Assembly (NCBI GenBank): GCA_902595195.1 | Contig: CACJPC010000002.1 | Coordinates: 42,270-106,269, forward strand | Direction: 5' to 3' | Origin: an uncultured Candidatus Actinomarina sp. | GTDB taxonomy: Bacteria > Actinomycetota > Acidimicrobiia > Actinomarinales > Actinomarinaceae | DNA: 64,000 bases | Shown: positions 11,901 to 61,563 of the stretch, one piece after another | How the letters are laid out: each line of letters begins with the position of its first letter | How positions within the stretch are numbered: the first letter of the stretch is position 1 | The notes under the pieces: model-generated | The model's input: the letters and a program-made list of their open reading frames with translations, nothing else | Told to the model about the DNA's origin: nothing | Database searches by the model: none | Made by a program: the position numbers and the translations under genes

Positions 11901-14900
11901 AAGTTCATCCGTTTGTGTTACTGCTTTACTCCAACTAACACCACCATTTGTGGAATATTGATAAAACAATCTCGCTCTCTCATATGGTTCTAAATGAGTT
12001 ACAGTTGTATCTTCAAACTTGAACTCTATTTGACCCTTGTTTTCAAGACATGTTAGCTGTGTAGTTGTAAGAGTAACTGGTTGGATGTCGTTGCTATTAC
12101 AATCCGAGTCTGCAGCTACTGTAATAGTTGAGTAATCTCCGCTAAAGTTTTCCATATATTTTGTAGAAGTGTTGCTTGTGTAAGTTCTGTATCTAATTTG
12201 ATACTCATGTGTTGAGTCAAGCAAGATAACACTTGCTACATATTCACTTGAGCTAAAGTAATAGGGCCTGATATAACCAAAATATGTAGAACTATTCCCA
12301 GTTACGCCACCATAATCGTGATGTTTATACCAATATGAATAACTTTCATTTGAATACTGCATATTTCCAAAAGGCTTCCAGGTATTGCCATCATGTGAAA
12401 TCTCAACTTGAAAATGAACATATGTGTTAGAAGAGATAGAACTAGAATCTCTATTAAGTTTTAATTCAAGTTTATCAGCACCATATAAGCTACAAGATAC
12501 ATAGTCTGTTGAGAAGTAAATTGGATCTGAGCTTGAACTTCCTACTGAGACTCCACAGTCTACCGTATTTGTAAAAGAAAATTCCGTCTCGTAGTAACTA
12601 CCATTTGGAGTTCCCTCTATACGATAGGATATTTGTACTACATCTCCATCTGAATAGGTCCCAAATAGTTGATGTGTTATGCCTGTTGAAGTAGGAGCTA
12701 GTGTAATAGTTCTATAATCACCGTACTCACCATCATTTACTTTAACTTTATAAACAAAGTAATTGGTCTCAGTATTTCCGTAATAATAAAATTCAAACTT
12801 TTGTTCATTGTTATAACATTGCGATCCAGCATATACAGCTCGTACAATTTTTTGGGTGACACTATTTGTACAGTCAATAAGCAATGTTGATGTGTTCGTA
12901 AAGTCTCCACTTGTTACAGGTGAAGTAGCAGCATATCTATAACGCATAACTACAGTGGTTCCCTGAGAGACAGTATCTTGAATTGTATAAGTCTTTACTT
13001 CACCAGGTAAAAGCATCTGATAAATGACAGCATTGCTGTTTGTTGAATCATAAAATGCTTCTTCCCATGTGCTACCTAAATCAGTTGAGTACTGAACGTG
13101 GAAATAACCTGTTGCCCAACCATTATTGCCGAGTGTAATTGATGGTGTTGCACCACCTGAGACACAAGTGCCTAAAGCAATTGATGCTGTACTAGCACCA
13201 ACAGTAGGACAGTTAACAGTTTTTACTGCTGAATAGTAGAGTTTTGAGTTACTAAAATCTCCACTAGTATAAGAAAACTTAAACTTATACTGCACAGTTC
13301 CTGCGTGGTTAACAGTGACAGTGTCTGTATATGACGTGCCTACAGCAAGATTAGATTCAATATCAATCCAATTAGATCCACCATCTATAGTCCTGGAAAC
13401 ATTCAGATAATACTGCGTACCAGCAGGTCTTGTCACAGTAAATGTTGCCGTTGCAAACCCTCCTGCTTCTAAAGTATTTTGACACTCTCCAATAGTGACT
13501 AGGTCGCTGTACGTATCATCCGTAGAATCAGTAGTTGTTGCTGTTCCCCAGTTAGTAGTTGTAATGACAGGATCACAATTTGTTGTACGCTGTTCAACAG
13601 TTTTATTGTAATTTCCGAAAACAACCCAGTCAGTTGAAGCAAGTTCGCTTTCAGCATATGCGACTTTGTATCTAATTTTCATTATGGAGCCAGATAATGC
13701 TCGAGTTGAAAGGTAAATAAAATCTTTACTGCCGCTTTGCTCCTGATTTATATAATTTGTTGTCTGCACTGCTGTATAGCCGTCAACTGCCAGACTTCCT
13801 GTAACGCTGCTATCTAAAACTGCACGATCATCATTGTATGAATCAGAACTGTCAAGTTTATAGAATAAGTCATTTTTGGTCCAATTATCACCATCATCAA
13901 GAGAGATTTCAAATGCATACCAAAGAGCTGATCTGTTTGCGTCATTATAGTTTGAGTTGTACATCACCCAACCCATCCACTGTTTGTTATCAACACAGCT
14001 ATTAACTACATTGGATGGTTCAGTTTCATATTGATAAGAACTACTACTCCATGGGCCAATATTTAAATCACAATCGTGATGCCAACTAAGACCATTTGAA
14101 GGAGAGCTTAAATATTGTTCTTCATAAATACCCGTATTCCATGAAGGGTTTTCAGTATAAGACTTCTGAATTCTCCACCCCATATACGCATCTGCTTCAT
14201 TTGTATATGTTTTTGCTCCAGCTGTGTAAACCAAAGTTTCCCCTGCAGCAATCGAGAATGTTGTTGAATCTGAACTGTTGTATGCTGATCCAGTATTGTA
14301 GCTATACGGGTTAGCAGTTTTTGTCGGTGTTACTTTAAAATATACTGTTTCTGACTCATTATTCGTGAGAGTTAAAGTAGAGGTCTGACCTGCAGAACTA
14401 CATGCTGTTACTTCATAGCTTGCTGTAACTGATGGATTGCAATCGTTGTATTGATAACCTGTGTACTTATAAGGATACCCAGTGGTATTATTCCAATCAG
14501 GATTTTCAATATACGAACCTTGAACAATCCACTGCATATAACCCTCAGTACCATCAGGGTATAGTTTTCTCATATCTGGACTAGTGGTAGCATCATATGT
14601 TAGAGTTTCGCCAGCTGGGACTGAGAAATAAATTGCAGCTGACCAATCTATATAGCTCGAATTTGGTGAATTGATACTGTTAGATGAAGTTTTAGTAGGT
14701 GCGGCTTTAAAGTACAACGTCTGTGCTTCATTATTGGTTACAGAGAGTGTTGAGTACCTTCCAACAGCGGCACAAGAACTAAAGGATGCTGACTGTGTAA
14801 AGTCTGCAACACAGTTTGCTTGTCTACTAAAGACTGCCCATGCAGCATTTGCTGTTGAGTCTGTTGGGTTTGTCTCAGCAATACGATACCTAAAATATCC

Positions 14901-17198
14901 TGTTGCAGATGAAGCAATAGTTTCTGGTGCTGAAAAAGTAAGTGATTGACCGTCGGCAAGAGCTGTCCCATCTGCGACCTCCGTCCAATTAACATTATCT
15001 GGCGAAAACTCTACATCAACAAAACCGCCATAACTGTCATTTGTTGCATTGAAGTTTGTTAGTGTAAGTCGTATGGTTGCATTACCGGAACCATCACAGA
15101 TTTGAGAAGTGCTCTGAGAAACTCTAGTGTAATTGGCAGTGCTGTTTGTTGATTCTCCACCATTACCCCACCAGTTACAATCTACAGCACTAGGTGCAGT
15201 CCATCGAACCCAGGAATCTCCAGATTTTAATTCATTACCATAAGATCTTGAAGTGAACGTACCTTCAGTGTGTGAAGAAGAGTATAAATCTGTTGAACGA
15301 TATTGATAGTAGCTTGTACCATACACCATTTTAAATTCTGGAATAACGCCATGATAAACGTTTGCTGTGTATGTATAAGTTTGGCCGGCATTGATTGTAC
15401 GGCCCCATTGATCTTGCCAGCTAAAAGCACTTGAACCTACAGAAGTTCGTTTTGCATGTGCAAAATACATTGATGTGTTTCCAGTATTAGTGAGTGTGAC
15501 ATTATAGGTTACAAAGTCGTTGTTACAGGTTCCATTTGTGGTTGCAGTAATTGTACCTGAGTAGGTTTTACAATCTATAGTTCTACTCGTAGCTGATGTA
15601 AACCCTGATGTAGCTGTTGGATTAGCATCTGCAACGATGTACTGAAAATATACTGTCTGAGCATTTGCTACTGTTGTTGGCATGCTGATTGTCTCTGGTG
15701 TTCCTGAGACAACTAACTCACCATCTATAAAGGTTATCCAAGTACCACTTGAGCCAATCTTGTACTGTACATCAAAATATGCATTTGTTGTACCTGTATT
15801 TGTTAGTGTTACTGATGGTGTTGAAGAACCTCCATCACATGTCCCAGCAGCAGTATCTACTGTACCTGCAGCATAATCACCACATCCAGAACCTGTTAAT
15901 AAATCCCCTACTATATACATTGTTCCACTTGATGGATTTGAAGAGTTGTACCGCATTCGATACTCCACCGTCTGACCTTGGTATACAGCTGGTGCACCTG
16001 TTGCAGAGAACTGTCCACCTGGCGATATCTGCGTTCCGTCTAATAGTCCTACCCAGCTTCCACCAGCAATTCTGTAATCTACATCAAAATACTGTGTTGT
16101 TTGCTTGTTGTTAGTAATAAGGAGTGCTGGCTGTTGATAACCGCTTGCACATTCACCAATTGAGGTTTTAAAGGATGGAGCAAACGGATCATATGCATTT
16201 GGTCCGCAGGAAGCACCGTCTGTATTATCACTTGTAAATGTTGTTCCTTTTGTAGCTACGTTATATTGATTAGTTCCAGTTCTCTTAACTTCAAATCTAT
16301 TTCCAAGACCATCATCAATAATGAAACGAATCTCTCCCTCTGGAGTTTTATAGGTATAGCTAGCAAGTGTTGCTGAGACACCGCTGAATGCTGCATTTGT
16401 TGGTGTGACTTCTGAAATAGCATTGTTGTCTTTATCATAAAGAACAACTTTGTTAGCTAAAGCATTATATGTTGCAAGCTCATATCCATCCCAGTCACCA
16501 ATATATGAAAAGTCAGCAGCATTAATATGAGTAGTCATGCCGGGATCAGCAAACGTTGTTACTCCACCAGTATCAACGTTATAGATGTAGCCATGCTTGA
16601 AACCAGCCTGTGCCATATATATCTGATCATTACCATTTGCATTCACGACATATTCACCAGATGAGAATCCGTAGTAACCGTTTACACCGTCATAAAAGTT
16701 CTCATCACCAACTTGGGTATAGTCAGCAATATGAGCGAGAGGTGTAAGTACACCTTCAGTACTAATAGTAAAGAGATGTGTACCATGTCCATCAGAGGTA
16801 ATCGTTACATACATAACACCTGTTGGTGACATCGCTAACGCGTTAATACCTTTTACATTTCCTGCAATATTGGATGTAGAACTAAAGTCTACTGTTGTTG
16901 TTGTTCGTTGAATAGTTGTTGTCTCTGTAGCTACATATTGATCAATAGTGAAGCTAGTTGACGTATAGTCCCAATCTAATTTATAAAAGTATGCTCTTGC
17001 ATACGCATCATTACAATCCCAGTTAGCAGTTGCATACGCCTCTTCCTGTGGCACTGCCCATGATGAGATGAACACGATGGTAAATAGAGCAATATATGTT
17101 GTTGTTTTGAGTATTGTTCTGATAGTTGACGAGTTGATATAAGACCTCAAATTTAAATATGTGTAAATAAATTTATTACTCATAACACTCAACAACAT
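5925..17198 (-). CDS. Giant (3757 aa) cell-wall-anchored surface protein: signal peptide, ~330-aa N-terminal domain, ~30 divergent Ig/FN3-like ~110-aa repeats, C-terminal LPVTG sorting signal
   Basis: 11.3 kb uninterrupted ORF. C-terminus LPVTGRNVGGLLISVGLLLFACGAFILRREYRY is a sortase sorting motif followed by a hydrophobic stretch and a basic tail. Repeats are bounded by Cys (..VDC..) and share TLTLTNNxxxxxYFxVxY...W.....GQTIxWRYK-like motifs. Thr/Ser/Asn/Gly/Tyr-rich composition. Confidence 0.9.
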   Translation of the reverse strand: MLLSVMSNKFIYTYLNLRSYINSSTIRTILKTTTYIALFTIVFISSWAVPQEEAYATANWDCNDAYARAYFYKLDWDYTSTSFTIDQYVATETTTIQRTTTTVDFSSTSNIAGNVKGINALAMSPTGVMYVTITSDGHGTHLFTISTEGVLTPLAHIADYTQVGDENFYDGVNGYYGFSSGEYVVNANGNDQIYMAQAGFKHGYIYNVDTGGVTTFADPGMTTHINAADFSYIGDWDGYELATYNALANKVVLYDKDNNAISEVTPTNAAFSGVSATLASYTYKTPEGEIRFIIDDGLGNRFEVKRTGTNQYNVATKGTTFTSDNTDGASCGPNAYDPFAPSFKTSIGECASGYQQPALLITNNKQTTQYFDVDYRIAGGSWVGLLDGTQISPGGQFSATGAPAVYQGQTVEYRMRYNSSNPSSGTMYIVGDLLTGSGCGDYAAGTVDTAAGTCDGGSSTPSVTLTNTGTTNAYFDVQYKIGSSGTWITFIDGELVVSGTPETISMPTTVANAQTVYFQYIVADANPTATSGFTSATSRTIDCKTYSGTITATTNGTCNNDFVTYNVTLTNTGNTSMYFAHAKRTSVGSSAFSWQDQWGRTINAGQTYTYTANVYHGVIPEFKMVYGTSYYQYRSTDLYSSSHTEGTFTSRSYGNELKSGDSWVRWTAPSAVDCNWWGNGGESTNSTANYTRVSQSTSQICDGSGNATIRLTLTNFNATNDSYGGFVDVEFSPDNVNWTEVADGTALADGQSLTFSAPETIASSATGYFRYRIAETNPTDSTANAAWAVFSRQANCVADFTQSASFSSCAAVGRYSTLSVTNNEAQTLYFKAAPTKTSSNSINSPNSSYIDWSAAIYFSVPAGETLTYDATTSPDMRKLYPDGTEGYMQWIVQGSYIENPDWNNTTGYPYKYTGYQYNDCNPSVTASYEVTACSSAGQTSTLTLTNNESETVYFKVTPTKTANPYSYNTGSAYNSSDSTTFSIAAGETLVYTAGAKTYTNEADAYMGWRIQKSYTENPSWNTGIYEEQYLSSPSNGLSWHHDCDLNIGPWSSSSYQYETEPSNVVNSCVDNKQWMGWVMYNSNYNDANRSALWYAFEISLDDGDNWTKNDLFYKLDSSDSYNDDRAVLDSSVTGSLAVDGYTAVQTTNYINQEQSGSKDFIYLSTRALSGSIMKIRYKVAYAESELASTDWVVFGNYNKTVEQRTTNCDPVITTTNWGTATTTDSTDDTYSDLVTIGECQNTLEAGGFATATFTVTRPAGTQYYLNVSRTIDGGSNWIDIESNLAVGTSYTDTVTVNHAGTVQYKFKFSYTSGDFSNSKLYYSAVKTVNCPTVGASTASIALGTCVSGGATPSITLGNNGWATGYFHVQYSTDLGSTWEEAFYDSTNSNAVIYQMLLPGEVKTYTIQDTVSQGTTVVMRYRYAATSPVTSGDFTNTSTLLIDCTNSVTQKIVRAVYAGSQCYNNEQKFEFYYYGNTETNYFVYKVKVNDGEYGDYRTITLAPTSTGITHQLFGTYSDGDVVQISYRIEGTPNGSYYETEFSFTNTVDCGVSVGSSSSDPIYFSTDYVSCSLYGADKLELKLNRDSSSISSNTYVHFQVEISHDGNTWKPFGNMQYSNESYSYWYKHHDYGGVTGNSSTYFGYIRPYYFSSSEYVASVILLDSTHEYQIRYRTYTSNTSTKYMENFSGDYSTITVAADSDCNSNDIQPVTLTTTQLTCLENKGQIEFKFEDTTVTHLEPYERARLFYQYSTNGGVSWSKAVTQTDELTNSTTFNLPSVQVTNGQTVSIKWGYVRYHDYYTTNGSYQIYDRGSTYYSYDEPPTEYAFIRGLTSTGLFFTRYDEGTNISGSITGDFNTNFMNHVMVNTTDVQVDCDPDSDYSQTLTTCECDDLGATSTLSITNNDNYTSYYKVQYSLDGGITWQSATDSLESAFDISVSAGSTNTDLSKFVPDGQTITWRVKDTTNGGDFEGQEWEEVTASATVDCGCDGGSVEVDVAVGTCGNGSSTPVIQLVPSSTDTAYFTIEYKRNSDTEWQAFKTAEIVSNGLTENHPLEVTVPHGGTVQVRYKVNKVLNNLNLEEWNYTDTKTINCPFTAVTGEAIYTACAENYRAASFKVTNTSSSTAAAKFNVQYKIVNASGTVTDWTNSSIVNSVIAPGVSLVTTNNLQILEGQKIEWRYESVKTTEAFTGVWTEDTTSAYVNCVIDVTVTNIMGSCDSGSQLSTLSLQNNESLNTIYFQVQYTLDNGASWILKSPNLAVAPGETDTTLNHAVPHTKNIIWRYKVTNTNNDYTGITDTVLSASATVDCPVLEGTGSSSFGACTAGERKSTFTFSNSSSANAPAYFYIQYDLSGDSSDWITKVSGSAVIPGTSSTTFVMVPDGQTITWRYYPMSSATTPNSWITEATSEEVNCSLDTVISQTLDECIDNSAVSRYVLTNNTNTTVYYQVEYFIQGSTGYVVADTDLTLGAAGSNTQSAEFTQNVDSGKYIRWRYKAATSLSGLVSASYVDYIQSATVNCETIDPSVTTSFGICYNNTKEVKFVIKNSADATTSALFKVQVNVNGAGWVDKPDITLGVDGQYPHTQIVPTGQTVQWRYKVAKTVADLPTDWTNDDLRTITCSSGEDITVTFDTTCDANGYKTSKLNINNSSSGILYYKAEYSTDGGSNWTLSANQVQVNPGGSTFLPESVSEGETITWRYKISETGSDFSTLNWTTTDTSEIVNCTGVNIATPYTSIGQCVSGSKSSRFHYGTLSSSPAPAYYHIQYRIDGGTWTDKVTSSNGVVVGGVNTSTSQSVTSGSTIEWRYKAAYSTAALSNISFTTLAGGAIEVDCGTFISVVHQMGTCSNQTATSTLTLNNTGSTPLLVTVHSAMNSGEWSTEVSTVEITAGNQLTLTKSVINGQTISWKYKYAGTVTKLASASETTFGSIPALDCETEVLNQVSINNVLKACVAGNRVSELTVTNNSSDTVYVEAWYDIGNGWISKGTSAVTNGTPKVLEAPGAPHGSTVKWRYRLGLSSSMSNDYTTLTALTVDCPQTSTVTQTLEACSNQSRDSKLSINNTGTITQYYKVEYAVNNGGYEYMTTVSVAAGQVDNSIYKNLTSGQYITWRYAATTTQNDFSNASYRYLTRTQTVDCTSANLTATQDTSCDVSGSAAVKKSTFTISNTSSNTAQVEIGYSTNNISWTSQGIQTITSSQPYSINQTMTTNFIIYRYRIYNATNPNNWQYENIMAPADCSPTTSSVSAYTTNECINNSPQAKLTIINPNSTAVVVSYDISINGGGWQSVGNTSVMGNFTTNPYPVPANSTFQWRYKTSTETEYKFASGTAENCSQASSLSGFTEITCSQQNGGVTTGPQAELVISNFGSQAVSVMYDYKIDNGQYQSGSVLSVNPNTTLRIPKISIGESQSIVFRYKSTSDNEYKFTDARTGIECGSTLNNPELILTIGECSANVADSTIEIRNLSNEVKTFYLEYRINDGSNNGSWVPYETITINPTSSTTRLLRINQNQEIQWRALDSSYTQFDPTAPYQISNAETAICETTPPTTIPQDTYIFEPLISTNRVCDFEDGGAEFGITVDNSRSNVDAEVLKKIWINTTLIAEQTVLVPAGQMIDFSSIEVGENKFFTVALEVTNTQNEKVQKMIKNKDADCIQDNTPLSEDQNPLPDVEEDENIDNVMRIEGDDNEEVLDNGESLQFLPGDDYVEFVYNEDAEGIFPTDPIDPTPPPSVGTTLPVTGRNVGGLLISVGLLLFACGAFILRREYRY
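6012..6026 (-). other. LPVTG cell-wall sorting signal codons in the giant protein
   Basis: Reverse complement of ttaccagtgacaggt reads L P V T G, followed by a hydrophobic segment and RREYRY-stop. Confidence 0.85.
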
Positions 17199-17277
17199 TT
17201 TTAATTAGATTTAATTCTAATTAACTTAACATTAGTTTAACTGGAATTCATTTAAAGTAAAATGATTTTTTAAAAAT

Positions 17278-34981: not shown

Positions 34982-35319
34982 TGGTGGAGGTGCGGGGAGT
35001 CGAACCCCGGTCCTTCCAAGCTATCAAACAGCTTCTCCGAGTGCATCCGATGGTTTACTGTTAGGCAAGTCATCGGAACCTATAACCTAACAGGTTTACC
35101 TAAATCTTAGGAGTCAGTCGGTAACCCAACTCAGCATCCCACATTTCGACGCCATTGCTATCCGAGGTGGGAGCCCCGATAGGTGACGAGCAGCGGTTAG
35201 GCTGCTAAAGCCAACTTAGGTTTGGCAGTTATATTGTTTTCCTACGTTTTTTACGAGGCCCTAGGACCCTCGACTCGCTACTGAGAGACTCGCTTCAAAG
35301 TCGAAGCCAGTTCACCCCC
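34982..35319 (-). ncRNA. ssrA: tmRNA (ssrA), ~338 nt; predicted tag ends ...AKPKLALAA, stop UAA
   Basis: Reverse complement begins GGGGGTGAACTGGCTTCGACTTTGAAGCG and ends CCGGGGTTCGACTCCCCGCACCTCCACCA. tRNA-Ala-like acceptor with the G3.U70 wobble, T-arm GGTTCGACTCC, encoded CCA. Internal ORF ...GCCAAACCTAAGTTGGCTTTAGCAGCCTAA. Confidence 0.9.
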
Positions 35320-35371: not shown

Positions 35372-36016
35372 ATGAAAATTAATAACAATAGCTTTGAACT
35401 AAATGAAAAATTACAAGTAGTAATTGATTCAAATGATAATGATGGGTTAATATTTATACCAAAAAATATTCAAATTGATGTAGATATAGAAAACTATTTT
35501 GGAAAAATTGTAATTAGTAAGTTAGTTATTCATCCTTCTGAGAGTGAATTCCAAATCGGTAAATTAACGATTGAAAATAACATTCCAAATATGGATATTA
35601 AGTTACTTGATCGATATATTTATAAAGTTTTATCTGACAAGTCCGGATTAGCCTACTCTCCTTATAAATATTTCCCTGATTACGATTTTACAGTTTTTGA
35701 AAAAGGCAGAAGACCCTCACCGCTAGATTGGGCTATGTTTGCTTCTCTATATGTATTTAGTTGTAATGTCTTACCGCAATCAGTAAAAGTAGAGCTATCA
35801 CTTGCAAAGCATCTAAGAATATCCGAGGAAAACTTTAAAAGATTTATGAAAAAAATTCCCGAAGATTTATTTAGAAAATCAGGACACACCGAATCTAGAG
35901 GTGGGGATATCTCATTAAATGCAGAAAATTTAATTAAAGAATTTCTAGGAGTAGATCAGGAATCTTTTGAAAACAATCCTTTTTTAAAGTTTTACTCTGA
36001 AGCTGATTTTGCCTGA
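35372..36016 (+). CDS. Hypothetical cytoplasmic protein (214 aa), no recognisable family
   Basis: Long ORF with coding-like composition. Overlaps the convergent 35992..36435 gene by 25 nt. Confidence 0.5.
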   Translation: MKINNNSFELNEKLQVVIDSNDNDGLIFIPKNIQIDVDIENYFGKIVISKLVIHPSESEFQIGKLTIENNIPNMDIKLLDRYIYKVLSDKSGLAYSPYKYFPDYDFTVFEKGRRPSPLDWAMFASLYVFSCNVLPQSVKVELSLAKHLRISEENFKRFMKKIPEDLFRKSGHTESRGGDISLNAENLIKEFLGVDQESFENNPFLKFYSEADFA

Positions 36017-36435
36017 GGTCTGCTCACCATAGATAAAATTTTACTTACTTCAACTTCCCATATTTCTCTGGATTTAATACCTGCTTGTTCCCAGGTAATA
36101 TCCTTTGTCCGCTTATAAGGCTTGCCTAGGTATCGATTTGATAAATAGTCTATGTGATCATTGGCAGTAGAGTCTTGAACTATTGTTTCTACACTACCTC
36201 TTATTTCCCAACTTGAATACATGTCAGATGGATGAAAAATGACAATTGACAAATTTGGTTCCTGCCTGATATTTTCTGTTTTTTTTCTTCCTTGTTCTGT
36301 ATTAATAAGAATTTTATTTTCTTTGTAATCAACCCACATTAGATGATTCTGAATCTCATTTTCATTAATTTTTGTAGCTATTGAACAGAATGCATTATTA
36401 TCAATTGCTTGTTTAAGTTCATTTGGAAGTTGCAT
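35992..36435 (-). CDS. PNPOx-like FMN-binding split-barrel protein (pyridoxamine 5'-phosphate oxidase family; possibly F420-dependent)
   Basis: 147 aa. The pattern SIATK...HLMWVDYKENKILINTEQGRKKTENIRQEPNLSIVIF is typical of the PNPOx/Rv1155-like split-barrel fold. F420 biosynthesis genes are present in the window. Confidence 0.55.
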   Translation of the reverse strand: MQLPNELKQAIDNNAFCSIATKINENEIQNHLMWVDYKENKILINTEQGRKKTENIRQEPNLSIVIFHPSDMYSSWEIRGSVETIVQDSTANDHIDYLSNRYLGKPYKRTKDITWEQAGIKSREIWEVEVSKILSMVSRPQAKSASE

Positions 36436-36465: not shown

Positions 36466-37026
36466 ATGGCATTTATTAAATTGTTCAAATTTCAGGACTC
36501 TACTGGTCTTCTTAAAAAAGAGTATGAGAAAGGCATGAGAAGAGCTGGAAGAATTTGGAACATACTGACAATTCAATCCCAAACCCCTGAAATTTTAAGA
36601 GATTCAATGCGTTTATATAATTCAACAATGTTTGGAAGTTTAGAAATATCTCGTTTTGATAGAGAATTACTTGCAGTAATCACTTCAATTTCCAATGAAT
36701 GTGAATATTGAATACGAGCACACTTATATGATCTCCGGTCGGAGACAAAAGACCAAAAATTAGTTGATGAGATTGCTAAAGACTGGAAAAAAAGCAGCTT
36801 AACAAAAGAACAAATCGCTTTGTGTAATTTTGCGGAAAAATTGACTTTGAAACCGGGTGAAATAACACAATTAGATTACAAAGAATTACAAAAAAATAAT
36901 TTTGATGACAAAGCAATATCAGAAATAGTTCAAGTAATTTCCTACTTTAACTACATCAATAGAGTTGCCGATGGACTTGGTTTAGAGCCTGAGGAATTTA
37001 TTGACGAAAAAGGTTATAAAAAATAA
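36466..37026 (+). CDS. Candidate AhpD/carboxymuconolactone-decarboxylase-family selenoprotein with an in-frame TGA at 36709..36711. The track splits it into 36466..36711 and 36820..37026, which are in the same frame.
   Basis: DNA tccaatgaatgtgaatatTGAatacgagcacac reads S-N-E-C-E-Y-(TGA)-I-R-A-H. This matches the CMD/AhpD core motif SxxNxCxYCxxxH with TGA at the second Cys. The downstream frame stays open for 105 more codons with family-like sequence (ALCNFAEKLTLKPGEIT...). Confidence 0.55.
36730..36746 (+). promoter_or_regulatory. Candidate bacterial SECIS-like hairpin 21 nt downstream of the in-frame UGA
   Basis: gaTCTCCggtcGGAGAc is a 5-bp G/C-containing stem with a GGUC apical loop (G and U in the loop), sitting in an otherwise AT-rich coding sequence. 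Confidence 0.35.
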
Positions 37027-37066: not shown

Positions 37067-38212
37067 ATGCAACAAAACACTAAAGGCTTACTCCTTTTTG
37101 TATTTTTAATTTCCGTAAGTGTATTTGGTATAAACCTTTTTAACAATAATGATTCTGAAGAGAGTGTAGAGGTAACTCAAACAACATTATTTGAAGCTAC
37201 CACAACAACATCTCCTGTAGTTAAAATCGAAAAATATGCTTATCCAAGTTTTGATTTTGAAAAAGAAACAACATCTTCGTTGGAGTCTATAAGTGACTTA
37301 TGTTACATAACAGGAAATTGGTTCAGCTTAACAAGAGAGTGTCTTTTAGAATGGGAAAATTCATTAAAAATTATCGATAGTAAAAGAGATGCTTACCTTG
37401 AACATTATGAATACACTTTGAATTATTTTAAAAATAATTATGCCAATATAGATGAAGATACATTTTTGTATATTGTTTCAACTTTAACAATTAATGAGAA
37501 AGTAAATTTCTTTACCTCACAATTAAAAGAAGTTGAGGAAGTAATAAGAATCAAAGAAAATCAAGATGAAAATATTACATCTATATTTTTATCTGACGAA
37601 TCTGTTACAAAATCTAAAGAATTGGAAACAGAAGATCTGAAAAATGGTTGTTATCTAGAGAATTTAGAAGATCCCATAGAGAGTCCTGAACTTATTGAAG
37701 TTGAAACTATAAATACAAGAGATGACAAAAAGTTTAATTTTGGAATAAAGGTTGAATCTTCTTTAAATATCGACCCTGAGTGCATAAAAAAGTTATTAGA
37801 TTTGATATTGAATCATGAAAAAGGCTGGATAAACGTAACTGATAAAGGCTTCCATCACACAAATGTTGAAGATAGTGATTTTGTATATATATTTGCTTCT
37901 CCTGAAACTACTGACGAACTTTGTTACCCCTTGCAAACAAATGGGATATATTCATGTAGAAATGAAAGAGAAATAGTTATCAATGACTTTAGGTGGAAAA
38001 ATGGTGCTAGGGATTTTTTAAGAGATTTAGAAACTTACAGATTGTATCTTATCAATCATGAAACTGGCCATATTTTAGGCTGGGGGCACACAAGTTGTCC
38101 TAAAGAAGGTGCTATTGCACCAGTAATGATGCAACAAAGTAAAGGTACTGATGGATGTGTTCCATATGGTTGGCCAATTTACGAAATTATAAAAGCCAAT
38201 TTTGATGATTAG
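37067..38212 (+). CDS. Secreted metzincin-like zinc metalloprotease (DUF3152-like, HExxHxxGxxH)
   Basis: N-terminal signal/TM (GLLLFVFLISVSVFGINLF). C-terminal INHETGHILGWGHTSCP is the HExxHxxGxxH metzincin motif. Confidence 0.6.
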   Translation: MQQNTKGLLLFVFLISVSVFGINLFNNNDSEESVEVTQTTLFEATTTTSPVVKIEKYAYPSFDFEKETTSSLESISDLCYITGNWFSLTRECLLEWENSLKIIDSKRDAYLEHYEYTLNYFKNNYANIDEDTFLYIVSTLTINEKVNFFTSQLKEVEEVIRIKENQDENITSIFLSDESVTKSKELETEDLKNGCYLENLEDPIESPELIEVETINTRDDKKFNFGIKVESSLNIDPECIKKLLDLILNHEKGWINVTDKGFHHTNVEDSDFVYIFASPETTDELCYPLQTNGIYSCRNEREIVINDFRWKNGARDFLRDLETYRLYLINHETGHILGWGHTSCPKEGAIAPVMMQQSKGTDGCVPYGWPIYEIIKANFDD

Positions 38213-41029: not shown

Positions 41030-42559
41030 ATGAATAACATAATCGTCTCACCTCACTATTTATCTACAGATATTGCTTCTCAAATATATAACAAAGGTGG
41101 AAATGCAGTTGATGCTGCTATTGCAACTAATCTTATTCAAGGTATCGTAGCACCAGAAACTTGTGGTATTGGTGGAGACCTATTTGCGCTAGTTTGGGAT
41201 CCATCAAAAAATGAACCCGATTTTTTAGACGCTTCCGGATATGCTGGTACTTTTGCAAACCCTGATGATTTACAAAATATGGAGTCAATACCATTAAATC
41301 ATCCATTATCTGTAACTGTTCCAGGTGCAGTTGCAGGATGGATAGAGCTCAGTAAAAAATATGGCAATTTAAAAGTACAGGAAATTTTAGATCTAGGAAT
41401 AGATTTATGTCACGAGGGTTTTGAAATCAACGAAGAACTTTATAATTCTCTAACTATACACAAAGAGGAACTCAGCGGACAGGCATCTGGATATGGGTTT
41501 TACAGAGATAACCAGCCTTTTGAAAAAGGTAAAGTGATAAGGCGTCCTCAATTAGGAAAGACTCTAGAGCAATTAAAAACCAATGGCCTTGAATATTTTT
41601 ATGATAGTGAAATTGCAAAATCGATCTCTTCAAGTGTAAATGGAATTTTATCATTGGATGATTTAAGAAATTATAAAGCTGAATGGAAAAAGCCTCTGCA
41701 TACAAATATTTATGGGTTTGATGGCTGGACATCACCTCCACATACTCAGGGTTACCTAACTTTATCAACATTGAAAGCAATTGAGATGTTAGATACTGAG
41801 AACGATGATATACATAAAATTATTGAGACATACAGAATTCTTGCCGCAGATCGAGACAATATTACTTACGATTATGGAAAAAATATAAAAGATTTTAAAG
41901 GCGTTGATGTAGATTACTTACAAGAAAAAATAAAGCTATTCAACCCAAATCATTCCGAAAAATTTGATTTTCCTAAACCACATGGTGGAGGAACAGCATA
42001 TATGAACACAATTGATAAAGACGGATTAGGAGTATCACTTATACAATCTAATTTTCACGGAATTGGGAGCAGGATAGGTGTAGGAAGTTTTGGATTTTTC
42101 CTACACAACAGAGGATGTGGATTTAATCTAGACTCAAAACACCCAAATTATTTATTACCAGGAAGGAAACCGCTTCATACTCTTTCACCAACAATTTGGT
42201 CTAAAAATGGAAATTTAGAATTTATAGCTGGCACCAGAGGAGGAAGATACCAACCTCAACTATTAATTCAAACAATACTGCCTTATATTCAAAAATCAGA
42301 TTCTTTTGAAGAAATAATTAAAGAACCCAGATGGGTTATAGAAAATTTTTCTAGTGAAACGACATCAAAATTAAGATTCGAAAAAATTAATAATGAAGAT
42401 TTAGAAATTTTACTTAAAAAAGGGCACGAAGTTGAAGTAGAAAATAAACTTAACAAAGCTTATGGTCCTATTTCAATTATTTATAAAAAGGATGACGGAA
42501 ACTTTGAAGGTGTTTGTGATGTTAGAGTAGGTACTGAAAAAGTTTTTAATAGTTTTTAA
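41030..42559 (+). CDS. ggt: Gamma-glutamyltranspeptidase-family protein
   Basis: N-terminus GGNAVDAAIATNLIQGIVAPETCGIGGDLFALVWD and the autoprocessing/nucleophile region HGGGTAYMNTID. 509 aa. Confidence 0.8.
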   Translation: MNNIIVSPHYLSTDIASQIYNKGGNAVDAAIATNLIQGIVAPETCGIGGDLFALVWDPSKNEPDFLDASGYAGTFANPDDLQNMESIPLNHPLSVTVPGAVAGWIELSKKYGNLKVQEILDLGIDLCHEGFEINEELYNSLTIHKEELSGQASGYGFYRDNQPFEKGKVIRRPQLGKTLEQLKTNGLEYFYDSEIAKSISSSVNGILSLDDLRNYKAEWKKPLHTNIYGFDGWTSPPHTQGYLTLSTLKAIEMLDTENDDIHKIIETYRILAADRDNITYDYGKNIKDFKGVDVDYLQEKIKLFNPNHSEKFDFPKPHGGGTAYMNTIDKDGLGVSLIQSNFHGIGSRIGVGSFGFFLHNRGCGFNLDSKHPNYLLPGRKPLHTLSPTIWSKNGNLEFIAGTRGGRYQPQLLIQTILPYIQKSDSFEEIIKEPRWVIENFSSETTSKLRFEKINNEDLEILLKKGHEVEVENKLNKAYGPISIIYKKDDGNFEGVCDVRVGTEKVFNSF

Positions 42560-42992
42560 TTTCTTTTTTATGCTGTTTTTCAATAAGTTTTTTTCTTTTA
42601 TCGTAGTCTTTTTTACCTCTAGCAAGAGCAAGCTCTACTTTTATATACCCATTTTTTTCAAAAATTTTTGTAGCGATTAATGTAAATCCTTTTTGGGAAG
42701 TTAAACCTATTAGTTTTTTTATCTCACCTTTGTGAAGTAAAAGTTTTCTTTGATTTTTTGGATTGTAATCTGTCTGGTCCGCATATTTATATGGCTCAAT
42801 GTTCATTTCCATAAGAAATGCTTCCTCATTTTCAATTATTGCGAATGCGTCAACAATTGAAACCGCACCAGTTCTGACACTCTTAGTTTCTGGACCAGTT
42901 AAGACAATTCCAGCTTCATAAAACTCTTGAAATTCATAAGAATTTCTCGCTTTTCTATTTTCTGCAAATACTTTCATCAATCTAGAAAACAA
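42546..42992 (-). CDS. smpB: SsrA-binding protein
   Basis: KVFAENRKARNSYEFQEFYEAGIVLTGPETKSVR is the SmpB signature. 148 aa. Confidence 0.9.
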   Translation of the reverse strand: MFSRLMKVFAENRKARNSYEFQEFYEAGIVLTGPETKSVRTGAVSIVDAFAIIENEEAFLMEMNIEPYKYADQTDYNPKNQRKLLLHKGEIKKLIGLTSQKGFTLIATKIFEKNGYIKVELALARGKKDYDKRKKLIEKQHKKEIKNY

Positions 42993-44350
42993 TAAGGATT
43001 CACTCTACCTCTAGAAGTTGGATCAAGATATGGTAATGAACAATTAGCCGAACTTGGATTCTTTAATCTTACTTCAAAGTGTAAATGTGGTCCTGTAGAA
43101 CGACCTGTAGAGCCAACTGTTCCAATTTGGTCACCTGTAACTACAGTTTGACCAACTGAAACTAAAATTTTATCCATATGGAAATATAAAGTTGTCATTC
43201 CTCCGCCATGATCAATGAATACAGTCCTTCCAGCTAGACCGTAATATCTTGCAAGAATAACTACACCACCTGCAGCTGCTTTAATTGGCGTGCCTCTACT
43301 TGCTGCTATATCAATAGCGCCATGAAAACTGGTTGTTCCTCCAAGTCTTCTCCATTTGTATCCACTAGAAACATAACCCGTTGTTACAGGCCAACTTAGT
43401 TTGTTTGGAGCAACACCTCCTACACTACTTAACCTTTCTATATCTGCCTGGATTGCATCTTCAAGTTTTTCTAAATCAGCATGTTCTTTATCTAGCTTTT
43501 CTAATTCTTTATTAGCTTGGTTTAATAGACTTTGAGCATTTTGCCTAGCTCTAAGAACCTGAGATTTTTTAGCCTCAACTTGCCTTTTCTCTCTTTCTAC
43601 AGTTTCTTTTTTCTCTTCTACTTCTTCAGCAAATTCTTCAGCTTCAATAGAAATTTCAGTTTTTCTTGTTTCCTCATTTTGTAAGAGATTAACTATTTCT
43701 TCCCTTTCTTCTTCTCTTTCAGTTAAAAATACTGTCTGAGTTGAAGCAAGATTTTTTAAAGCATTTAGTTGTTCAACGATCTCATAAGCTGAGTCAACAA
43801 TTGTGGAGGCATATCCTAGGGCAACTAAAAACCTTGATAATTCATTTAATTCCACGAACAATGCTGTTGTAGGACTCATAACACCATTTATGTAGAGGCT
43901 TACAGCTTGTTCTTGTAACTTATCATCTGCTTCTACCAAGTTTTTTTGAGTTTCAAACAATTCGTCAGATACATTAGATATTTCATTTTTAATTTTTCCA
44001 AGTTTTGTTTGTTCTTGAACAATCGTCTGCTGAACTTCAGCCAAGTCATTTAAAGTTCCATCGTAATTTTCTAATGCTTTTTCTAATTCCCTTTCAGCAG
44101 CAGAAAGCCTTGATTGTACTTCTGCAAGCTCTTGGTTGACTTGTTGCAAATCTTTATCGTTTTCCAAAATAGCATTTTCAAGATCAGTAAGTTGTCCTTC
44201 GTAGTTGCTGATTTGCTCAGCGATTGCCTGAAGTTGTCTTTCAACTTCTATCAATCTATCCTCTGCAGTTATAGCCATTGAATTTGTTGGAAACATTAAT
44301 GTCAAAACTAGAAATATTGGCAGTGAAAGTGTTAAAAACCTTCTAATCAT
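42977..44350 (-). CDS. Secreted coiled-coil + M23 (LytM) peptidase, FtsEX-associated cell-wall hydrolase (EnvC/PcsB-like)
   Basis: Signal peptide, ~300 aa of heptad-rich coiled coil, then C-terminal FHGAIDIAASRGTPIKAAAGGVV...DHGGGMTTLYFHM M23 motifs. Directly downstream of ftsX. Confidence 0.8.
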   Translation of the reverse strand: MIRRFLTLSLPIFLVLTLMFPTNSMAITAEDRLIEVERQLQAIAEQISNYEGQLTDLENAILENDKDLQQVNQELAEVQSRLSAAERELEKALENYDGTLNDLAEVQQTIVQEQTKLGKIKNEISNVSDELFETQKNLVEADDKLQEQAVSLYINGVMSPTTALFVELNELSRFLVALGYASTIVDSAYEIVEQLNALKNLASTQTVFLTEREEEREEIVNLLQNEETRKTEISIEAEEFAEEVEEKKETVEREKRQVEAKKSQVLRARQNAQSLLNQANKELEKLDKEHADLEKLEDAIQADIERLSSVGGVAPNKLSWPVTTGYVSSGYKWRRLGGTTSFHGAIDIAASRGTPIKAAAGGVVILARYYGLAGRTVFIDHGGGMTTLYFHMDKILVSVGQTVVTGDQIGTVGSTGRSTGPHLHFEVRLKNPSSANCSLPYLDPTSRGRVNPYCFLD

Positions 44351-45221: not shown

Positions 45222-45905
45222 TTACCTAAGAATATAACTTCCTTCACTTTCATCTCTTGCAATTTTTCCGTTTGCAAGTTCAATAACTCGTTTTTTTCTT
45301 CTATTCACGATTGAAGAATCATGTGTAGCCATAACAACTGTTGTTCCAGCTCTATTGATTTTTTCAAGCAAAGAAACTATCTGGATACTCAATTCAGGAT
45401 CAAGATTACCTGTAGGCTCATCACATAAAAGTACAAGTGGATTGTTAGCTAATGACCTTGCAATACTTACTCTTGTTTGTTCACCACCGGAAAGTTGGTC
45501 TGGATATTTAAAAGCATTTTCATTCAGCTCTACAAGATCTAATAAGGTATTTGTTTTAGATTCGATCTCATCATTTGGAGTTCCCATAACTTCTAAAGCA
45601 AAGGCTATATTTTCGTAGGTATTTCTCTTTTCTAGTAGTTGAGGCTCTTGAGTAACAATTCCAAGTTTTCTTCTTAACAGTGGTGTCTTCCATCTAGGCA
45701 GTTGAACAACATCGAGTCCTGCAACTTCAATACTTCCTTTTGTAGAAATGTACTCCTTATATAAAAGTTTAAGAAAAGAAGACTTTCCACTTCCAGAATG
45801 ACCAACAAGATAAACGAATTCTCCTTCGTTTATAGTCGTACTTATATTTGAAAGTGCAACACTTCCACCTTGAAATACTAATGAAACATTATCTAACTTA
45901 ATCAT
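45222..45905 (-). CDS. ftsE: Cell division ATP-binding protein FtsE
   Basis: Walker A GHSGSGKSS, signature LSGGEQTRVSIARSL, Walker B LLCDEPTGNLD. Confidence 0.9.
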   Translation of the reverse strand: MIKLDNVSLVFQGGSVALSNISTTINEGEFVYLVGHSGSGKSSFLKLLYKEYISTKGSIEVAGLDVVQLPRWKTPLLRRKLGIVTQEPQLLEKRNTYENIAFALEVMGTPNDEIESKTNTLLDLVELNENAFKYPDQLSGGEQTRVSIARSLANNPLVLLCDEPTGNLDPELSIQIVSLLEKINRAGTTVVMATHDSSIVNRRKKRVIELANGKIARDESEGSYILR

Positions 45906-47002
45906 TTATTCCCTGTCTACGCCATTTTAGGTACTCTTTAATAAATATGGAAATATCTCCATCAAGAACATTCTGTACATTGCCTACCTCAATACTGTTT
46001 CTAGCATCTTTTACTTGTTGATATGGTTGAAGTACATAAGACCTAATTTGCCTGCCCCATCCAGCCTCGTGCTGATCTCCTCTTATTTCATTCAATTTTT
46101 TCAATTCATCTTCTCTTTTTTTTAATAATAATTTTGTCTTTAAAAGCTCTAATGCTCTTGTTTTATTTTGAAGCTGAGATCTTTCTGCCTGACAAGCCAC
46201 AACTATTCCAGTAGCAATATGTGTAATTCGTACAGCTGAATCTGTAGTATTTACATGCTGCCCTCCTGCTCCAGAAGATCTATAAACATCAATTCTTATT
46301 TCATCATCTTGGATATTAATTTCGTCATTATTTTCAATTAAAGGAATTACATCTACTCCAGCAAAGCTAGTGTGTCTCCTTTTATTACTATCAAAAGGGC
46401 TAATTCTTACTAATCTATGAACTCCTCTTTCACTCTCTAAATTTGCATATGCTCTAAATCCATTGATTCTTATAGATGCTGACTTAATTCCCGCTTCCTC
46501 CCCTTGAGACATTTCTTCAATTTGATGATCTATGTTATTGCTGGAAAGGTGTCTTGTATACATTCTTAAAAGCATCTCAGCCCAATCATGAGCATCAACT
46601 CCACCAGCACCTGCATTAATAGTCAAAACTGCATTCAAGTCATCATACTTATCGAAATAAAGTGCTTCGTCTTCAATCTCCTCAATCATATTTTCTAATT
46701 TGTTTATTTCATCTTGATAGTCTTCTTCATTGATATTTTCTTCTTCAGTAAGCTCAATTAATTCTTTAAGCTCTTTGAGGTCATTTTCTAAACTGCTTAA
46801 AGATGTTATCAATTTTTCTATAGTAGAAGCTTCAATTGATACCTTTTGGGCATACTGCGGATTGTCCCAGAATCCTTTTTTATTTATCTCAAGGTTTAAT
46901 TGATCAAGCTTCTTTTTTTTGTTTTCAAAGTCAAAGATACCCCTTTGCTGAAATCAATCTTTCATTAAAAGTGTTAACTTTACTTAAGATTTCTTTATAC
47001 AT
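45898..47002 (-). CDS. prfB: Peptide chain release factor 2, expressed through a +1 programmed frameshift. ORF0 is 47002..46934 plus UGA; the main frame continues from GAC at 46932 to the stop at 45898.
   Basis: ORF0 MYKEILSKVNTFNERLISAKGYL-stop, compare E. coli ...ERSDVLRGYL-stop. After the shift: DFENKKKKLDQLNLEINKKGFWDNPQYAQKVSIEASTIEKLITSLSSLENDLKEL..., contiguous with the track ORF. GGQ motif SGAGGQHVNTTDSAVR present. Confidence 0.85.
46930..46945 (-). promoter_or_regulatory. prfB +1 programmed frameshift site (internal SD-like AAGGGG + UAU CUU UGA C)
   Basis: Minus-strand sequence AAGGGGTATCTTTGAC is nearly identical to E. coli prfB AGGGGGUAUCUUUGAC. Confidence 0.85.
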
Positions 47003-56757: not shown

Positions 56758-56802
56758 TATTAAAATGTTAGTTGAAAGGTCAAAAATAATAGGTTCTTAA
56801 AA

Positions 56803-57699
56803 TTGAAAAAAGTAACATATTTAAGCGGTGGTGTGGGTGGTGCAAAATTTGCTAAAGGCTTATATAAAGCAAGTTTGAACAAACTTTCGATAATTGTTAA
56901 CACTGGTGATGACGAATATATAAATGGTGTCTCACTATCTCCAGATATAGATACCGTAATATACGGTCTAGCTGGAATTGAAGGTGAATTTGGATGGGGA
57001 ATAAAAAAAGATAAATTTACAGTTCATGAACATTTAAATAAATTTTTAAATACCAATTTTATGATTGGCGATAAAGATTTGGCTACCAATCTATTTAGGA
57101 ACCAAATGCTATATGAGGGAAAAACGTTGACAGAAATTACTAATGAAATAAAATCTGAATTCAACATTCTTTGTGAAATTATCCCAATGACTGATGACAA
57201 GGTAAGTACAAAATTAATTACAAAGCAAGGCGAAAGGCTTGATTTTCAAAACTATTTTGTTGAGAAAAGAGGAAAGCCAAGATTAAAAAATATAACGTAT
57301 AAGGGATCAAGTCAAGCAAAAGTTAGTAGCAAACTAATAAGAACAATGAAAGAAAGCGATACGATAATCATTGGCCCCTCTAATCCTTATTTATCAATCG
57401 GACCAATTTTGTCTCTAAGAAAAATAAAGGATGCATTAATTCAACATGACAATGTTATAGTTATCAGCCCATTTGTTAATAACAATGCCATAAAAGGACC
57501 TTCGAAAAAAAACTTTACAGATATGGGCCTCACAGCAGATATAAAAGGCATTAAGAAATTCTATAAAAATGTAGCTAACAAATATATCGTACATTTTGGA
57601 GATTCTGATAATTTAAGCAATACTTACGAAGAGAACATTCTTTTTAAAACAATTGAAGATTCAAAGAAATTAGCTACAAAACTACTTAGTTATGAATGA
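56803..57699 (+). CDS. cofD: 2-phospho-L-lactate transferase (F420 biosynthesis)
   Basis: N-terminus VTYLSGGVGGAKFAKGL is the CofD/YvcK-superfamily glycine loop. Size 298 aa. Followed by cofE with an 8-nt overlap. Confidence 0.75.
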   Translation: MKKVTYLSGGVGGAKFAKGLYKASLNKLSIIVNTGDDEYINGVSLSPDIDTVIYGLAGIEGEFGWGIKKDKFTVHEHLNKFLNTNFMIGDKDLATNLFRNQMLYEGKTLTEITNEIKSEFNILCEIIPMTDDKVSTKLITKQGERLDFQNYFVEKRGKPRLKNITYKGSSQAKVSSKLIRTMKESDTIIIGPSNPYLSIGPILSLRKIKDALIQHDNVIVISPFVNNNAIKGPSKKNFTDMGLTADIKGIKKFYKNVANKYIVHFGDSDNLSNTYEENILFKTIEDSKKLATKLLSYE

Positions 57700-58390
57700 A
57701 ATTTCGATTATTCCAGTAAAAGGATTACCCGAAATCAAGAAAGGTGATGACCTAGCTTCCATGACTTTTGACCTGATTAAGAAATCAGGAAGTGAGATTA
57801 AAAATAATGATGTATTTGTAATTACACAAAAAATTGTTTCAAAGAGTGAAGGTATGGAAAGAGATTTAAATGAATATGAATTTGAAGATTTAATTAAAAG
57901 TGAAACGAAACAAATTATTAGAAAACGAGGGGATTTAATAATTGCAAAAACAAAACACGGTTTCATATGTGCAAATGCAGGAATAGATAAATCCAATATT
58001 GAGAAAAACAAAGCTCTTCTTTTACCCGAAGATCCAAATAAATCAGCTCATAAATTTAGAAGTCAAATAAAGACTGTAAGTGGAAAAAGAGTAGCTGTAG
58101 TGATTTCTGATACTTTTGGAAGAGCATGGAGAAAAGGTCAGGTTAATTTTGCAATAGGTTCCTCTGGCATTTCTCCTATTACAAACTACATTGGAAAGTA
58201 CGACTCATTTAATAACGAACTATTTGCAACAGAAATTGCAACAATTGACGAAATTGCTAGTGCAGCAGAATTAGTTATGGAAAAGTCGATTAATATTCCA
58301 ATAGCTATCATAAGAGGACTTAAATATGAATCCTCAAATGAAAATGCAGAGATATTAATTAGAGACGATCAAGAAGATTTTTTTCTTTAA
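57692..58390 (+). CDS. cofE: Coenzyme F420-0:L-glutamate ligase
   Basis: 232 aa with the CofE pattern (IPVKGLPEIKKGDDLA...ICANAGIDKSN...). Translationally coupled to cofD, as in mycobacterial fbiA-fbiB. Confidence 0.7.
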   Translation: MNEISIIPVKGLPEIKKGDDLASMTFDLIKKSGSEIKNNDVFVITQKIVSKSEGMERDLNEYEFEDLIKSETKQIIRKRGDLIIAKTKHGFICANAGIDKSNIEKNKALLLPEDPNKSAHKFRSQIKTVSGKRVAVVISDTFGRAWRKGQVNFAIGSSGISPITNYIGKYDSFNNELFATEIATIDEIASAAELVMEKSINIPIAIIRGLKYESSNENAEILIRDDQEDFFL

Positions 58391-61560: not shown

Positions 61561-61563
61561 AAA

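Follow-up and report, generated by a model that had tools for sequence, protein, structure and literature searches.

We analysed a 64,000-nucleotide stretch of DNA, referred to here as the window, from an uncultured Candidatus Actinomarina sp. (contig CACJPC010000002.1 of GenBank assembly GCA_902595195.1, positions 42,270 to 106,269 of the forward strand; 33% GC), and found that positions 36466..37026 very probably constitute one functional gene, encoding an AhpD-like thiol/selenol oxidoreductase of 186 residues in which the UGA at codon 82 is decoded as selenocysteine (Sec). The gene lies on the + strand and runs from an ATG at 36466 through 186 codons to a TAA at 37024-37026, with the TGA at 36709-36711, codon 82, as its only internal in-frame stop. 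Around this codon the translation reads ...ITSISNECEY*IRAHLYDLRSET..., and over a longer portion of the read-through ...ELLAVITSISNECEY*IRAHLYDLRSETKDQ.... The original prediction, which was made from the letters of the window and a list of its open reading frames (ORFs), had described two same-frame ORFs separated by this TGA; the TGA is indeed there, but the second ORF, at 36820..37026, is simply where the ORF finder restarted at the next TTG. Our analysis itself backs the integrity of the gene, its family membership, the alignment of Sec with Cys, a constraint on a downstream hairpin at the RNA level, the use of UGA as a stop elsewhere and the presence of selD in the lineage. The features concerned are the following, each with the evidence behind it.

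36466..37026, + strand: complete coding sequence of the AhpD-like (TIGR01926 / CMD superfamily) probable selenoprotein (TIGR01926, Pfam CMD, 6K40, orthologues)
36664..36723, + strand: active-site signature E67-x11-C79-E-Y81-U82-I-R-A-H86 (translation; PMC3141380; alignment with 6K40 and 3C1L)
36709..36711, + strand: UGA codon 82, very probably read as Sec (invariance of the TGA, alignment with Cys-forms)
36732..36745, + strand: hairpin within the ORF resembling a selenocysteine insertion sequence, or SECIS (fold, rare invariant codons, hairpin in a second phylum)

For the family profile searches, the stop of the read-through protein was replaced by Cys. The protein scored 136 bits against NCBIfam TIGR01926 'peroxidase-related enzyme' (cutoff 81.8), with residues 11-176 matching profile positions 10-176 of 178, the UGA included, and 30 bits against Pfam CMD (cutoff 23) over residues 45-94 only. 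Its top solved relative was 6K40 'AhpD' (E = 3.4e-25, residues 16-176). The PDB matches 6K40, 3C1L (Mlr4105), 2OYO, 2PFX and 2PRR spanned E = 3e-25 to 4e-18 with about 160 residues alignable, a match decisive for the fold; at 188-197 aa they are comparable in length to the window protein, and most are structural-genomics depositions titled 'uncharacterized' (e.g. 'uncharacterized peroxidase-related protein') or 'putative'. In the two alignments that we inspected, with 6K40 and 3C1L, which unlike the window protein are Cys-forms, residue 82 aligns with the second Cys of the core N-x-C-x-Y-C-x3-H. The window protein also has every element of the AhpD proton-relay signature E-x11-C-x-x-C-x3-H, with Sec replacing the second Cys, and the equivalent residues are Glu118/Cys130/His132/Cys133/His137 in Mycobacterium tuberculosis AhpD and Glu36/Cys48/Tyr50/Cys51/His55 in PA0269 (PMC3141380). 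With this profile score and with U82 lying on the Cys of the homologues, the claim of a candidate AhpD/CMD-family selenoprotein carrying its UGA at the second Cys of CxxC is borne out.

The Cys-form homologues P0046, P0049 and P0050, with about 48% identity, read ...NSTRYC TTAHWHDY... and have TGC at codon 82 (loci L050 and L051), so that the alignment of U with Cys which the original prediction asked for is seen in these homologues as well as in 6K40 and 3C1L. These three proteins have kept the second Cys of the motif but lack the first, which fits the second position as the essential one. Membership of a related family, NF041238 'AhpD_rel_CFYUT', was considered and rejected, the protein reaching 55 bits against a cutoff of 175 for a model with a length of 357 residues.

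We then compared the gene across genomes, taking one genome per species and full-length matches, which gave 42 Actinomarina loci and six loci from Gemmatimonadota (Longimicrobiales). The nearest relatives are single-amplified genomes (SAGs) and metagenome-assembled genomes (MAGs) of Candidatus Actinomarina (OCS155 cluster, Actinomarinales), with at most 98% protein identity for this gene. A stop occupies the codon 82 column in 48 of 48 loci (Actinomarina 42/42, Gemmatimonadota 6/6), and frameshifts or further internal stops were found in none of the 48 Sec-form genes; a check of the orthologous codon, which had been proposed at the outset, thus returned TGA without decay in both groups. Within the 42 Actinomarina genomes the TGA is invariant amid synonymous drift of its surroundings, where C79 is TGT or TGC, Y81 is TAT or TAC, R84 uses five codons and A85 four. 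The median ratio of nonsynonymous to synonymous substitution rates (dN/dS) in Actinomarina was 0.066 for codons 1-81 and 0.153 for codons 83-end, at a dS of about 1.3-1.4. Codons 83-118, which would be untranslated if the gene were split in two, gave a dN/dS of 0.15-0.18. Beyond the UGA, the position of the first in-frame start is scattered, and 10 of the 42 orthologues lack any in-frame ATG, GTG or TTG there. The Gemmatimonadota Sec-forms (L042-L047, e.g. L042:6001-6585) come from genomes of 68% GC and carry the motif C-F-Y-U-T; their gene context (an alpha/beta-hydrolase plus a VTT-domain ORF, and a radical SAM gene) gave no functional clue. The protein matches also include C-terminal fragments, of which P0076 is named Acidobacteriota (its sequence was inspected) and P0084 Pirellulaceae (by name alone), which suggests Sec-forms in additional phyla.

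Public databases hold the gene in two altered versions. The 81-aa N-terminal fragment has exact matches on at least 997 public contigs (NCBI, JGI, ENA, Logan, Tara), where entries are titled 'hypothetical protein' or 'alkylhydroperoxidase family enzyme' (e.g. MBR9877687.1, 36466-36711; P0111). Other entries (P0001-P0038) are 186-190 aa long with Trp at residue 82. This Trp is an artefact of gene calling under code 4 on short metagenome contigs, and it means that those contigs carry TGA. None of the public entries that we saw for the gene bears a selenoprotein name.

The conservation of the stop, the intact frames, the low dN/dS and the record of 997 contigs together rule out, in our reading, that the gene is a pseudogene, that its TGA is a sequencing error or that there are two separate genes. 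The idea that a nonsense mutation inactivated a former Cys-containing AhpD-like gene draws on the splitting of the ORF by an in-frame stop and on the public annotation as an 81-aa 'hypothetical protein', yet 42 species-level genomes and a second phylum retain the TGA with neither a frameshift nor a second stop, and the downstream part evolves at a dN/dS of 0.15 with dS near 1.4, so that we regard such a pseudogene as extremely improbable. A sequencing or assembly error, with TGC or TGT as the true codon, is the least probable explanation of all and has next to no chance of being right: a single-base change (A for C or T) would restore Cys, but the TGA recurs in 42 independently assembled SAGs and MAGs and the exact 81-aa product on at least 997 contigs. 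Both had been named as alternatives in the original prediction, and the orthologue comparison and the contigs carrying the 81-aa fragment dispose of them. A genetic code in which UGA is sense throughout the genome, as Trp (code 4) or Gly (code 25), might seem to be favoured by the many database entries with W at residue 82, which stem from code-4 gene callers. However, TGA is the stop of at least seven long, tightly packed ORFs of the window, no other ORF of the window needs read-through of TGA, and a gene for release factor 2 (RF2, prfB), the factor that recognises UGA, lies at 45898-46953 on the - strand (446 bits against a cutoff of 370). The TGA-terminated ORFs and RF2 exclude codes 4 and 25, as had been anticipated from the absence of any other long ORF requiring read-through; moreover, homologues have Cys and neither Trp nor Gly in the codon 82 column, and we consider an alternative code hardly credible.

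The next question is what directs the ribosome at codon 82. Downstream of the TGA, a stem UCUCC (36732-36736) / GGAGA (36741-36745) encloses the apical loop GGUC (36737-36740), and this hairpin is the centroid structure on folding. The original prediction had the hairpin itself right, although it placed its end at 36746 and its distance from the TGA at 21 nt; the end is at 36745, and the spacing is 20 nt from TGA to stem and 25 nt from TGA to loop. The latter value falls inside the 16-37 nt published as the UGA-to-loop range for bacterial SECIS (PMC10778597), the 5-bp stem fits the 5/6-bp 'minimal' apical hairpin that is common among them (PMC4607533), and GGUC is a small apical loop with the conserved G described for these elements (PMC1088965).

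The codons that make up the hairpin are L90 CTC, R91 CGG, S92 TCG and E93 GAG, and in the long ORFs of the window CGG accounts for 5 of 592 Arg codons (0.8%), TCG for 3.7% of Ser, CTC for 5.9% of Leu and GAG for 27% of Glu, giving a joint expectation of 4.9e-6 for CTC-CGG-TCG-GAG. Across the 42 Actinomarina genomes CGG, TCG and GAG do not vary, and the sole variant of the stem, CTC to CTT in nine genomes, retains a G.U pair. Synonymous variation in a 5-codon sliding window has its minimum for the whole gene at codons 89-95 (0.04-0.09, compared with a mean of 0.395). The Gemmatimonadota Sec-forms (68% GC) carry a hairpin at precisely the codons of the Actinomarina one, GACCUC-CGGGCC-GAGGUC (-8.1 kcal/mol), and the consensus fold of both phyla has four pairs in common, one of them with a compensatory change from U-A to C-G. 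The aligned site of the Cys-forms (64-67% GC) folds weakly, at -2.5 and -1.1 kcal/mol. Taken together, these comparisons show that the hairpin is under selection at the RNA level and that this selection is specific to Sec-forms. On both strands of the window we found only two UGAs with an open frame on either side and a hairpin resembling a bacterial SECIS; the second, at 61430 (+) with stem CCTAG/CTAGG and loop GGTAT, is an antisense frame shadow within prpD (60178-61563, -) and was discarded. This rarity and the low joint expectation of the hairpin codons speak against a chance pairing of UGA and hairpin. The other TGA-split ORFs of the window were likewise rejected as selenoprotein candidates, being antisense shadows of real genes.

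Selenocysteine machinery was sought in the window and beyond it. A metagenome collection was scanned for the SelD motif TDVTGFG in AT-rich codons, and the contig compositionally nearest the window, L056 (AACY020319425.1; 33% GC, tetranucleotide r = 0.98), carries selD. Close homologues of this selD include full-length forms of 344-347 aa starting MRLTEYSHGSG-W-ACK, and the 90%-identity cluster of these forms contains AGQ18952.1 / UniRef100_S5DVI1, 'selenophosphate synthase [Candidatus Actinomarina minuta]'. In the selD DNA (L172-L178) codon 12 is a TGA, giving MRLTEYSHGSG-U-ACK (e.g. L172:73-1107, with the TGA at 106-108), and a stem-loop CUCUCC-CAA/CAG-GGAGAG of -15 kcal/mol lies 9 nt past it (L172 about 118-132). 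The recovery of selD with its own TGA shows that the lineage has a selenophosphate synthetase, which is itself a second UGA-containing gene. Public entries for this selD either lack its N-terminus, at 290 aa, or have W at the UGA position. Its stem CUCUCC/GGAGAG is nearly the same as the AhpD-like stem UCUCC/GGAGA, from which it differs by the 9-nt spacing and the CAA/CAG loop; about 30 nt downstream there is possibly a second hairpin, whose loop has G-U, and either of the two is a candidate SECIS. A recent preprint reports selC, selA and selD together with a divergent selB in 84 of 84 complete Actinomarina genomes, and predicts about five selenoproteins per genome, among them a Sec-form SelD with the prefix 'MRLT' (preprint 10.64898/2026.04.03.716425). 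The search for the machinery that the original prediction proposed thus yielded selD, with its own UGA; selA, selB and selC are those reported in the preprint.

Several observations weigh against decoding of UGA-82 as Sec with the help of this hairpin. No tRNA-Sec was found by ARAGORN in the window, the 49 related loci or seven selD loci. Profile searches (NCBIfam or Pfam; about 50 ORFs scanned in the window) found no selA, selB or selD in the window or the 49 related loci, and neither selA nor selB was found within 10 kb on either side of selD on three contigs; for the presence of selA, selB and selC in the lineage the preprint is our single source. The stem is short, at 5 bp, and the folding energy of the hairpin, -7.0 kcal/mol, is not significant (z = -1.19; 21 of 200 shuffles as good), although a shuffle-based folding energy is a weak criterion for an element of 14 nt; support for the hairpin therefore comes from conservation and not from thermodynamics. 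Covariation is thin, amounting to the one compensatory pair between the phyla and the one G.U variant, and the hairpin overlies a conserved peptide, DLRxE, so that part of its conservation is at the protein level. A scan of the window at Rfam gathering thresholds returned a tmRNA and a tRNA-Gln only and no SECIS family; Rfam models cover bacterial SECIS elements poorly (preprint 10.64898/2026.04.03.716425), and this negative result is uninformative for that reason.

The comparison with the SECIS of Escherichia coli fdhF cuts both ways. That element, the sequence of which we confirmed in 5,419 of 5,426 E. coli genomes, is likewise a hairpin within the ORF just after the UGA, and its GGUC tetraloop with G-U is identical to the loop in the window; we take the assignment of this loop in fdhF from its sequence and from general knowledge. 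In contrast to fdhF, and also counting against the window hairpin, the stem in the window is a perfect 5-bp helix with no bulged U, and, counted from the U of UGA, its loop begins at nt 29 instead of nt 22, that is, 7 nt farther; the extended lower stem of fdhF is absent as well. The bulged U is, however, a feature of the E. coli element and not of all bacterial SECIS.

Two further explanations accept the gene and dispute the selenium. If UGA-82 simply terminated translation, the product would be a protein of 81 aa, possibly accompanied by a separate C-terminal protein, and the hairpin would serve mRNA stability or pausing. Sec insertion in bacteria is generally inefficient, and the 81-aa product is for that reason probably made to some extent; gene callers also predict C-terminal fragments in some genomes (P0065 and P0067, with the start at codon 87). 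Termination alone would nevertheless leave the purifying selection in the same frame over codons 83-118 (dN/dS 0.15-0.18) without cause, the starts after the UGA are scattered and are missing from 10 of 42 orthologues, and His86 together with the C-terminal half of the TIGR01926 domain follows the UGA, so that half the fold would be missing from the 81-aa fragment. We think this explanation very improbable, and about equally so a read-through independent of any SECIS, in which a near-cognate tRNA (Trp, Cys or Arg) would yield a full-length protein without selenium. The small and thermodynamically unremarkable hairpin speaks for the latter, as does the failure to locate selA, selB and selC in the DNA scanned. 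Yet the UGA sits exactly in the column of the catalytic Cys, in a family documented as CxxU selenoproteins; the hairpin agrees with what has been published for bacterial SECIS and is under RNA-level selection; and the lineage has a selD with its own UGA, the full Sec machinery having been reported (preprint 10.64898/2026.04.03.716425).

Under the reading that we prefer, in which UGA-82 is decoded as Sec, events would follow the established bacterial mechanism. When the ribosome nears UGA-82, SelB-GTP-Sec-tRNA(Sec) would bind the hairpin at its apical loop, and SelB would bring Sec-tRNA(Sec) to the A site, outcompeting RF2, while partial termination at UGA-82 would probably also release the 81-aa fragment. 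By homology, Sec82 would attack an oxidised partner (a peroxiredoxin sulfenate or a disulfide) or a hydroperoxide directly, Cys79 would resolve the intermediate to give an intramolecular selenenylsulfide, and an upstream reductant would reduce it again. SelB binding, selenium insertion, the substrate and the reductant are all steps that we infer.

The division of labour between the two active-site residues differs from the one first proposed, in which the second Cys had been called the 'resolving' one. In M. tuberculosis AhpD the second Cys, Cys133, is the exposed, attacking residue and forms a mixed disulfide with Cys61 of AhpC, while Cys130 is partly buried; the AhpD of Burkholderia thailandensis has the opposite preference (PMC6626918). 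An attacking role for Sec82 with Cys79 as the resolving residue is accordingly most likely, and is probable rather than certain because of the preference seen in B. thailandensis. Also to be set against our assignment of an enzymatic role is the finding that no peroxiredoxin gene (ahpC) or other obvious redox partner occurs among the about 50 window ORFs scanned; since none is adjacent, the biochemical role suggested here is one drawn from homology. At the loci of the Cys-forms (L050:1511-4570, L051:294-863) the gene lies directly downstream of genes for a 2-oxoacid dehydrogenase E1-beta and a lipoyl-E2 and upstream of a peptidase S10, a context that hints at a lipoamide-linked redox role as in mycobacterial AhpD; the linkage to E1-beta and lipoyl-E2 is absent in Actinomarina.

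The gene is a real member of a known selenoprotein family and comes from the habitat in which that family was discovered. A 2005 study of the Sargasso Sea described the 'AhpD-like protein' (COG2128, CxxU) as a new selenoprotein family, for which it had 27 sequences and predicted a SECIS (PMC1088965); in the Global Ocean Sampling data 'AhpD-like 1' was the fourth most abundant selenoprotein family, with 299 sequences from 37 samples (PMC2398784); and a review of 2026 defines the 'AhpD-like, CxxU' family by TIGR01926 (PMC13188914). The statement that AhpD-like Cys-x-x-Sec proteins are an established family was thus accurate, and has been so since 2005 (PMC1088965, PMC2398784, PMC13188914). The window gene resembles this family in passing TIGR01926, in having CxxU with Sec second, in its downstream SECIS-like hairpin and in its surface-ocean habitat. 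It is no different in kind, and adds to the family an assignment to Actinomarina and a truncated annotation. NF041238 (the Sargasso 'hypothetical protein 1') is an AhpD-related CxxU selenoprotein too, and the Gemmatimonadota homologues of our gene, like its name, read C-F-Y-U-T. With the AhpC-reducing AhpD of M. tuberculosis (Rv2429) the window protein has in common the CMD/AhpD superfamily and the proton-relay signature, Sec82 aligning with Cys133; it differs in having Sec for Cys133, Tyr81 for His132 (as in PA0269) and no adjacent ahpC, and the structure of M. tuberculosis AhpD was not among the PDB sequence matches to the window protein.

What is new, as judged by the main text and one supplement file of the Actinomarina preprint, is the explicit assignment of this gene to Actinomarina: the term 'AhpD' is absent from that main text, and 'peroxidase' and the prefix MAFI are absent from the one supplement file (preprint 10.64898/2026.04.03.716425). 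New as well is the evidence that public records give the AhpD-like gene in truncated or mistranslated form.

The neighbours of the gene include a PNPOx/F420-class oxidoreductase, a DUF3152 protein, SerA and a tmRNA. The PNPOx / Rv1155-like F420-class oxidoreductase (35992-36435, -) is divergent from the selenoprotein gene across a 30-bp spacer, and the F420 biosynthesis genes cofD and cofE (56776-58390, +) lie 20 kb away; a functional link of the selenoprotein gene to the oxidoreductase or to cofD-cofE is possible. Downstream, the DUF3152 protein (37067-38212, +) has a hydrophobic segment at its N-terminus and a motif, HETGHxxGxxH, resembling that of zinc metalloproteases; it has no NCBIfam name. 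The tmRNA (34982-35319, -; tag AKPKLALAA), SmpB (42546-43004, -) and prfB (45898-46953, -) are all within 12 kb of the selenoprotein gene, and synteny of the tmRNA with it was seen in 37 of the 49 related loci, namely those reaching far enough upstream. Elsewhere in the window, an ORF of 3,759 residues (5925-17204, -) had no Pfam match at E <= 1e-6; directly after it, a protein of 557 residues (4258-5931, -) carries a C-terminal sortase domain (class E-like), and the product of the large ORF is probably a giant sortase-anchored surface protein.

Family, motif and recoding mechanism are all established here, and the finding raises no fresh question of mechanism. Actinomarina is one of the smallest and most abundant free-living bacteria of the ocean. 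More speculatively, the AhpD-like selenoenzyme, found in 42 of 42 recovered genomes, could be a central peroxide or disulfide defence that makes the oxidative-stress tolerance of Actinomarina dependent on selenium, and the stem UCUCC/GGAGA of the AhpD-like and selD genes, together with the divergent SelB, could represent a SECIS consensus specific to the lineage; we offer this double proposal tentatively and think it rather unlikely to hold as a whole. If it were true, the shared consensus could be used to define the full selenoproteome of Actinomarina. Ocean metagenomes have an abundant 'AhpD-like' selenoprotein signal, part of which can now be assigned to a named and very abundant lineage, and the gene lends support to the recently claimed dependence of Actinomarina on selenium.

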